This document shows, piece by piece, positions 7,448 through 8,278 of a stretch of 64,000 nt of DNA (its first letter is position 1; each line of letters opens with the position of its first letter). The notes under the pieces are model-generated. The model worked only from the letters and a program-made list of their open reading frames with translations. It had not been told where the DNA came from and did no database searches. Origin of the DNA: Escherichia coli (GTDB lineage Bacteria; Pseudomonadota; Gammaproteobacteria; Enterobacterales; Enterobacteriaceae); NCBI RefSeq assembly GCF_001677475.2, contig NZ_CP015229.1; one strand, given 5' to 3'. Made by a program: the position numbers and the translations under genes.

Positions 7448-8278
7448 ATGTTTGTTCCGTTTCTCATTATGTTGCGCGAAGGACTTGAAGCCGCGCTGAT
7501 TGTCAGTTTGATTGCCAGCTATCTTAAGCGTACCCAGCGAGGCCGATGGATTGGTGTGATGTGGATTGGCGTGCTGTTTGCCGCTGCGTTGTGCCTGGGC
7601 TTGGGTATCTTCATTAACGAAACCACCGGCGAATTTCCGCAAAAAGAACAGGAACTGTTTGAAGGTATCGTGGCGGTGATCGCCGTGGTGATCCTTACCT
7701 GGATGGTTTTCTGGATGCGCAAAGTGTCGCGCAACGTCAAAGTGCAACTGGAACAGGCAGTCGATAGCGCATTGCAGCGTGGAAATCATCATGGCTGGGC
7801 GCTGGTGATGATGGTCTTTTTTGCCGTTGCAAGGGAAGGGCTGGAGTCGGTCTTTTTCCTGCTGGCGGCATTTCAACAAGATGTCGGGATCTGGCCGCCG
7901 CTGGGTGCAATGCTCGGTCTTGCTACAGCCGTGGTGCTCGGCTTCCTGCTCTACTGGGGCGGTATTCGCCTCAATCTTGGTGCATTTTTTAAATGGACCA
8001 GCCTGTTTATTCTCTTCGTCGCCGCAGGGCTGGCAGCTGGTGCTATTCGCGCATTTCATGAAGCCGGATTGTGGAACCACTTTCAGGAAATCGCCTTCGA
8101 TATGAGCGCGGTGCTGTCAACTCACTCGCTGTTTGGCACGCTGATGGAAGGGATTTTTGGCTATCAGGAAGCGCCAAGTGTCAGCGAAGTCGCCGTCTGG
8201 TTTATTTATCTCATCCCGGCGCTGGTGGCATTTGCCCTGCCACCACGCGCAGGGGCGACAGCGTCTCGCTCTGCGTAA
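7448..8278 (+). CDS. efeU: Ferrous iron permease EfeU (intact, not frameshifted as in K-12)
   Basis: ORF translating MFVPFLIMLREGLEAALIVSL with REGLE motifs of the FTR1/EfeU family; in-frame GTG at 7439 is an alternative start; continuous 276-aa frame. Confidence 0.9.
   Translation: MFVPFLIMLREGLEAALIVSLIASYLKRTQRGRWIGVMWIGVLFAAALCLGLGIFINETTGEFPQKEQELFEGIVAVIAVVILTWMVFWMRKVSRNVKVQLEQAVDSALQRGNHHGWALVMMVFFAVAREGLESVFFLLAAFQQDVGIWPPLGAMLGLATAVVLGFLLYWGGIRLNLGAFFKWTSLFILFVAAGLAAGAIRAFHEAGLWNHFQEIAFDMSAVLSTHSLFGTLMEGIFGYQEAPSVSEVAVWFIYLIPALVAFALPPRAGATASRSA

Follow-up and report, generated by a model that had tools for sequence, protein, structure and literature searches.

An intact efeU in what is very probably an ordinary wild-type efeUOB operon of Escherichia coli

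Iron transporters that combine an FTR1/OFeT permease, marked by REXXE motifs, with a periplasmic or extracellular partner that oxidises and binds the metal are described in PMC9174327 for several organisms: Ftr1p-Fet3p of yeast, FetMP, FtrABCD, P19-cFtr1 and EfeUOB/YwbLMN of Bacillus subtilis. The locus analysed here is of the same general design. It pairs the permease with a cupredoxin-M75 protein and a DyP haem peroxidase, in place of a multicopper oxidase (Fet3p) or P19. What exactly EfeO and EfeB do (ferroxidation, Fe3+ binding, haem deferrochelation) is debated for the whole family.

In E. coli, the system has a history tied to the laboratory strain. The title of Cao 2007, as cited for example in PMC4746246, PMC9600279 and PMC7549933, calls EfeUOB 'cryptic in K-12 but functional in O157:H7', and PMC7549933, PMC9174327 and PMC9600279 relay from Cao et al. 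2007 that a frameshift inactivates efeU in K-12 and that O157:H7, with its operon in frame, has a functional, acid-induced system regulated by CpxAR. That the K-12 system is non-functional through this frameshift, and that an in-frame operon restores growth under iron restriction, is also stated in PMC7549933 (citing Cao 2007), PMC2808357 and PMC4361602; PMC2808357 likewise opposes the K-12 frameshift to a functional efeU for strain 042. According to PMC4746246, the three genes form a tricistronic transcript. Intact efeUOB in E. coli other than K-12 is already known, from O157:H7, Nissle 1917, 042 and the ExPEC strain PCN033; in the last of these, deletion of efeOB left virulence unchanged, as reported in PMC7549933.

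We analysed a stretch of 64,000 nucleotides of the E. coli assembly GCF_001677475.2 (contig NZ_CP015229.1), hereafter the window. Its gene order begins with putA (partial), putP, a gene for a hypothetical protein of 447 aa, efeUOB, phoH, pgaDCBA, dgcT, a gene for an EAL protein and a chaperone-usher fimbrial operon, and continues with a two-partner secretion pair, an ACP/ketosynthase/ABC cluster ending in ycdU, serX, ghrA, ycdXYZ, the csg operons, ymdAB and clsC. The order putP-(hypothetical)-efeUOB-phoH-pgaD is common to 042, O157:H7 and PapRG-06-5. We consider it very likely that positions 7448-10740 hold efeUOB (ycdNOB) as an ordinary wild-type operon, at the site between putP and phoH-pgaDCBA where it is usually found, the genes being read directly and their activity and regulation being deduced from relatives. 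The three genes are intact and their motifs are conserved. Besides efeU itself, the main features of the locus are the following.

7370..7388, plus strand: Fur-box-like 19-mer TGTAATGATAATTGCTATC, 60-78 nt upstream of the efeU ATG, with 14 of 19 positions matching the consensus GATAATGATAATCATTATC
7396..7410, minus strand: CpxR-box-like sequence GCAAAGAAAAGTAAA, one mismatch to GTAAA-N5-GTAAA, a weak candidate
7475..7489, plus strand: first REGLE (REXXE) motif, EfeU residues 10-14, in hydrophobic segment 1
7553..7554, plus strand: GG that opens codon 36 (GGT, Gly36); both Gs are in the window and one is in K-12
7832..7846, plus strand: second REGLE (REXXE) motif, EfeU residues 129-133, in hydrophobic segment 4
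8336..9463, plus strand: efeO, 375 aa, periplasmic cupredoxin and M75 (imelysin-like) protein, by Pfam Cupredoxin_1 and Peptidase_M75 and by NCBIfam
9469..10740, plus strand: efeB, 423 aa, Tat-exported DyP-type haem peroxidase/deferrochelatase, by Pfam Dyp_perox_N and Dyp_perox_C and by NCBIfam

The efeU gene occupies 7448-8278 on the plus strand (831 bp), with an ATG start and 276 codons followed by a stop at 8276-8278. The list of open reading frames gives a longer plus-strand frame, 7439..8278, which starts on GTG, encodes 279 aa and encloses the ATG at 7448; this ATG is the efeU start in the RefSeq annotation of 042, O157:H7 PV15-279 and PapRG-06-5, where the gene measures 831 bp in each case. 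Translation of 7448-8278 revealed no internal stop, and the first-pass annotation, which had described a frame continuous for 276 codons, was exact on this point. Against the Pfam profile FTR1 (PF03239), EfeU scores 300.3 bits (cut-off 25.3, E=1.8e-89), in an alignment that spans residues 1-275 of 276 and profile positions 1-283 of 284; the NCBIfam equivalog NF041756 gives 330.5 bits (cut-off 255) and TIGR00145 gives 349.9 bits (cut-off 303.8). With FTR1 covered end to end and the frame unbroken, the earlier description of the gene as intact stands, and the segment unmistakably reads as encoding full-length EfeU, the predicted inner-membrane iron permease of the FTR1/OFeT family. A Kyte-Doolittle scan with a 19-residue window, a crude hydropathy method rather than a topology predictor, delimits seven hydrophobic segments (1-24, 32-60, 68-94, 118-141, 146-175, 177-204 and 242-268), in agreement with the seven transmembrane segments attributed to EfeU in PMC9174327. 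A sequence search of the PDB found no solved structural relative of EfeU. The protein is identical to EfeU of strain 042, with 0 differences, and is one residue away from that of O157:H7, at position 44 (F44 in the window, L44 in O157:H7), F44 being also the 042 allele. From the identity to the 042 protein and the single difference from the functional O157:H7 protein, we infer that this EfeU transports iron.

The comparison with K-12 was made in an alignment (A1) of the window, positions 1076000-1088000 of NC_000913.3 (K-12 MG1655, where b4490 is annotated as a pseudogene) and strain 042. At about 98% nucleotide identity between b4490 and the window efeU, the sole indel is the loss of a single G in K-12, where one G is missing relative to the GG at window 7553-7554 (alignment column 254). 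Because this 1-bp deletion in codon 36 shifts the frame, K-12 EfeU stops after 36 residues, its translation ending in ...RGRWIV*. When the G is put back, the K-12 gene encodes 276 aa and differs from the window EfeU at one residue only (L44 versus F44). The K-12 frameshift invoked in the first-pass annotation is therefore real, and can be placed at a precise site; the same alignment, which could have exposed a frameshift or a stop in the copy under study, contains none there. The K-12-type cryptic allele, with its single-G deletion in codon 36, is not the allele of the window.

How exceptional is an intact gene? The 1.3-kb efeU region is found at a coverage of at least 80% in 5,417 of 5,426 complete E. 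coli genomes. A 59-mer with the K-12 deletion matches exactly in 368 of them, and among the 40 matches listed of these 368, all are K-12 or laboratory-type strains (MG1655, C600, DH5alpha, J53, ER strains and similar), with a few unlabelled ones. An intact 60-mer at the same place is found exactly in 3,842 of the 5,426 genomes, the remainder presumably differing mostly by a SNP; both exact-match counts concern the K-12 lesion site only. The contrast with K-12 implied in the first-pass annotation is misleading, since an intact efeU is the rule in the species and it is K-12 that departs from it.

The same counts bear on whether the continuous frame could be a chance open reading frame, or an assembly error hiding a frameshift, a reading to which we give a negligible probability. 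Nothing spoke in its favour. EfeU matches its families end to end, with E values of about 1e-89 to 1e-105; an independent draft assembly, GCA_002516285.1, matches the window with 100% identity across 7,272 bp; and the 60-mer that is intact at the K-12 lesion site recurs in 3,842 complete genomes. On these grounds, both chance and artefact were rejected for efeU.

All three genes are on the plus strand, with gaps of 57 nt between efeU and efeO and 5 nt between efeO and efeB. EfeO scores 476.4 bits against its NCBIfam equivalog (cut-off 270), and carries HRLE (HxxE) at residues 217-220 and GEEDRY at 278-283, two motifs defined for EfeO in PMC9174327. Its mature region, residues 27-375, can be aligned over its full length with the crystallised E. 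coli EfeO (PDB 7wgu), with one difference, Q292L. EfeB scores 616.9 bits against the TIGR01412 equivalog (cut-off 428) and is nearly identical to PDB 2y4f and 3o72, and the alignment to 2y4f shows that D235, H329 and R347 are present. A twin-arginine signal, SRRRLLKG, lies at residues 13-20. We take D235, H329 and R347 to be the catalytic residues (distal Asp and Arg, proximal His). The exact EfeB protein is present in 67 blocks of a public assembly collection.

Upstream of efeU, the first-pass annotation had pointed to a Fur-box-like sequence just before the gene, and a candidate with 14 of 19 consensus matches is indeed found in the promoter region, at 7370-7388. Over both strands of the 64-kb window, four sites reach 14 of 19 and none reaches 15, and we regard the site as suggestive only: its score is not decisive alone, and its significance comes from its position and from the literature. 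A Fur box at efeU has been detected computationally in an ExPEC strain according to PMC4145685, and PMC10164565 places efeU and efeO in the Fur-2 iModulon. In K-12 and 042 the corresponding sequence is CGTAATGATAATCGCTATC, with C at 7370 and at 7382, where the window has T, and with 15 of 19 matches, and the O157 box also has 15 of 19. The C to T change at 7382 (consensus position 13) costs the window box one match relative to the K-12/042 allele, and this T is shared only with the draft GCA_002516285.1. The exact 60-mer across the window Fur box occurs in 0 of the 5,426 complete E. coli genomes; a megablast with it retrieved six genomes, a figure that gives no allele frequencies, since two SNPs break the 28-nt seed.

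Repression of efeU by CpxR is documented in PMC9600279. The CpxR-like site at 7396-7410 is no better than chance, six such one-mismatch sites being found in the window for 5.4 expected, and it is a weak candidate only. In a consensus scan of the plus strand from 6538 to the efeU start, no sigma-70-like promoter exceeded the threshold. By our own tentative reading, a candidate -35/-10 pair, TTGTAT-16-GATAAT, could be placed at 7354-7381, sub-threshold in the scan, with its -10 inside the Fur box. Scans of the efeU upstream region with Rfam and for tRNAs gave no match. The intergenic region itself, 6260-7447, is unusually long (1.19 kb) and AT-rich, with 31-33% GC at about 6500-7250; the open reading frames called mechanically in it, one of 88 aa at 7170-7436 on the plus strand and a minus-strand call of 48 aa in draft assemblies, are probably spurious.

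Compared with the EfeUOB systems of O157:H7 and Nissle 1917, the window agrees in the content and order of the three genes and in their chromosomal neighbourhood, and it retains REGLE, HxxE/GEEDRY and the Tat and DyP residues without exception. The differences from the O157:H7 strain amount to one residue in EfeU, two in EfeO and five in EfeB. What sets the window apart is a few lineage-specific conservative substitutions and the extra Fur-box mismatch (T at 7382), with no structural difference. Given this near-identity to alleles tested elsewhere, EfeUOB is probably functional in this strain, with acid-induced ferrous uptake.

Could the operon be intact on paper and yet impaired in this lineage? 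Substitutions such as EfeO Q292L, EfeB T38P, A85P and A271V or EfeU L44F, or the promoter SNPs, might lower activity or alter expression, and the EfeO and EfeB changes are indeed lineage-specific, differing from K-12, O157:H7 and 042, just as the T at 7382 is confined to the window and one draft and its 60-mer is missing from the complete genomes. None of these changes, however, touches REGLE, HxxE, GEEDRY, D235/H329/R347 or the Tat RR pair; F44 of EfeU is shared with 042; residue 38 of EfeB comes directly after the A-H-A signal-peptide region; and an EfeB protein found in 67 assembly-collection blocks is a circulating allele, not a one-off lesion. We therefore hold an impaired operon to be very unlikely. 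A related and more speculative idea is that the private C to T change at 7382, together with EfeO Q292L, could weaken Fur repression or change EfeO function, and so give the lineage its own efeUOB set-point; this we consider highly improbable.

If the operon is functional, as we favour, its working can be sketched from the described systems. Under iron limitation, Fe2+-Fur would leave the efeU promoter, where its box overlaps the likely -10, and at low pH the repression that phosphorylated CpxR exerts at higher pH would be relieved, such that efeUOB would be expressed when iron is limiting at low pH. EfeO would be exported via Sec, and EfeB via Tat, folded and loaded with haem. Periplasmic Fe2+ would then be bound and oxidised by EfeO and EfeB, and the resulting Fe3+ handed to the REXXE motifs of EfeU for passage into the cytoplasm. 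This scheme of capture, oxidation and import, and the stimulation of EfeUOB by low pH, are taken from PMC9174327.

Alternatively, the system may be functional with a main substrate other than free Fe2+: ferric iron, if EfeO and EfeU form a minimal Fe3+ transporter, or haem iron, if EfeB acts as a deferrochelatase. PMC9174327 assigns both peroxidase and deferrochelatase roles to EfeB, presents EfeUO of B. subtilis as a minimal ferric-uptake complex and treats the role of EfeO as debated, and NCBIfam names EfeB the 'deferrochelatase/peroxidase subunit'. The O157:H7 and Nissle systems, however, were characterised as low-pH-stimulated ferrous uptake, to judge from the cited titles of the two papers, Cao 2007 and Grosse 2006, and the question is one about the mechanism of the family at large and is not peculiar to this locus. 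We regard a ferric or haem substrate as unlikely, and ferrous uptake remains our preferred reading.

As to the strain itself, among the 5,426 complete RefSeq E. coli genomes the closest matches reach 97.7% over positions 1-25000 of the window and 98.7% over 39001-64000. This is inter-phylogroup-level divergence, and the lineage is rare in, or absent from, the complete-genome set.

Several other features of the window deserve description. Between putP and efeU, the 447-aa frame (4916-6259, minus strand) has no Pfam or NCBIfam match, and carries the annotation 'hypothetical protein' in 042, O157:H7 and PapRG-06-5. At about residues 240-425 it contains three copies, in tandem, of a unit of about 62 aa with the consensus P..Y.K.T...I..WA......R...G....W........ARNYL...GL...G. 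The whole 2.5-kb segment at 4763-7282, in which this frame and the greater part of the AT-rich efeU upstream region lie, is absent from K-12. Downstream of the operon, phoH (10985-12049, plus strand) is open for 354 aa from an upstream ATG, as annotated in K-12; the form that PGAP gives for 042, O157:H7 and PapRG-06-5 has 262 aa, and the Pfam PhoH domain covers residues 149-353 only. An Rfam match at gathering level, Ysr251 (192.8 bits), lies at 11851-12044 on the minus strand, antisense to the 3' end of phoH; a second one, the ES056 sRNA (119.7 bits), lies at 59191-59282 on the minus strand, in the leader region of csgD, immediately upstream of the gene.

In the neighbouring pga operon, pgaA (15859-18282, minus strand) carries a nonsense mutation, W752* (TGG to TAG), at 16027-16029, and encodes 751 aa against 807 aa in PapRG-06-5. 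The PNAG export porin thereby loses 56 residues at its C-terminus, and the other genes, pgaB, pgaC and pgaD, are of full length; the strain may be defective in the export of PNAG.

The two-partner secretion pair consists of a protein of 1270 aa, with a filamentous-haemagglutinin domain at its N-terminus (32980-36792, plus strand), and a 539-aa transporter of the ShlB/FhaC/HecB type (36881-38500, plus strand). The transporter frame is uninterrupted, whereas an internal stop makes its counterpart in GF43 an annotated pseudogene. Next comes a cluster of about 15 kb (about 38500-53309, plus strand), adjoining serX, the tRNA-Ser(GGA) gene at 53503-53590 on the minus strand. By the annotation of the corresponding region of GF43, which is 98.7% identical, it comprises acpS, an SDR, a FabZ-like dehydratase, an ACP, two beta-ketoacyl synthases, ABC transporter genes, a LolA-like lipoprotein-sorting protein, a malonyltransferase and ycdU. 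The whole resembles a lipid biosynthesis island of the fatty-acid or polyketide type, most of which K-12 lacks.

Intact efeUOB is textbook knowledge and the default state of the species, and matters little as a finding. The main value of the analysis is one of annotation: the locus is labelled efeUOB and intact, and the site of the K-12 lesion is mapped to window positions 7553-7554. For the biology of the strain, an intact operon means that it probably possesses a low-pH, Fur-controlled route of Fe2+ uptake that is missing in K-12, a point to bear in mind when the iron physiology of K-12 is extended to wild strains.
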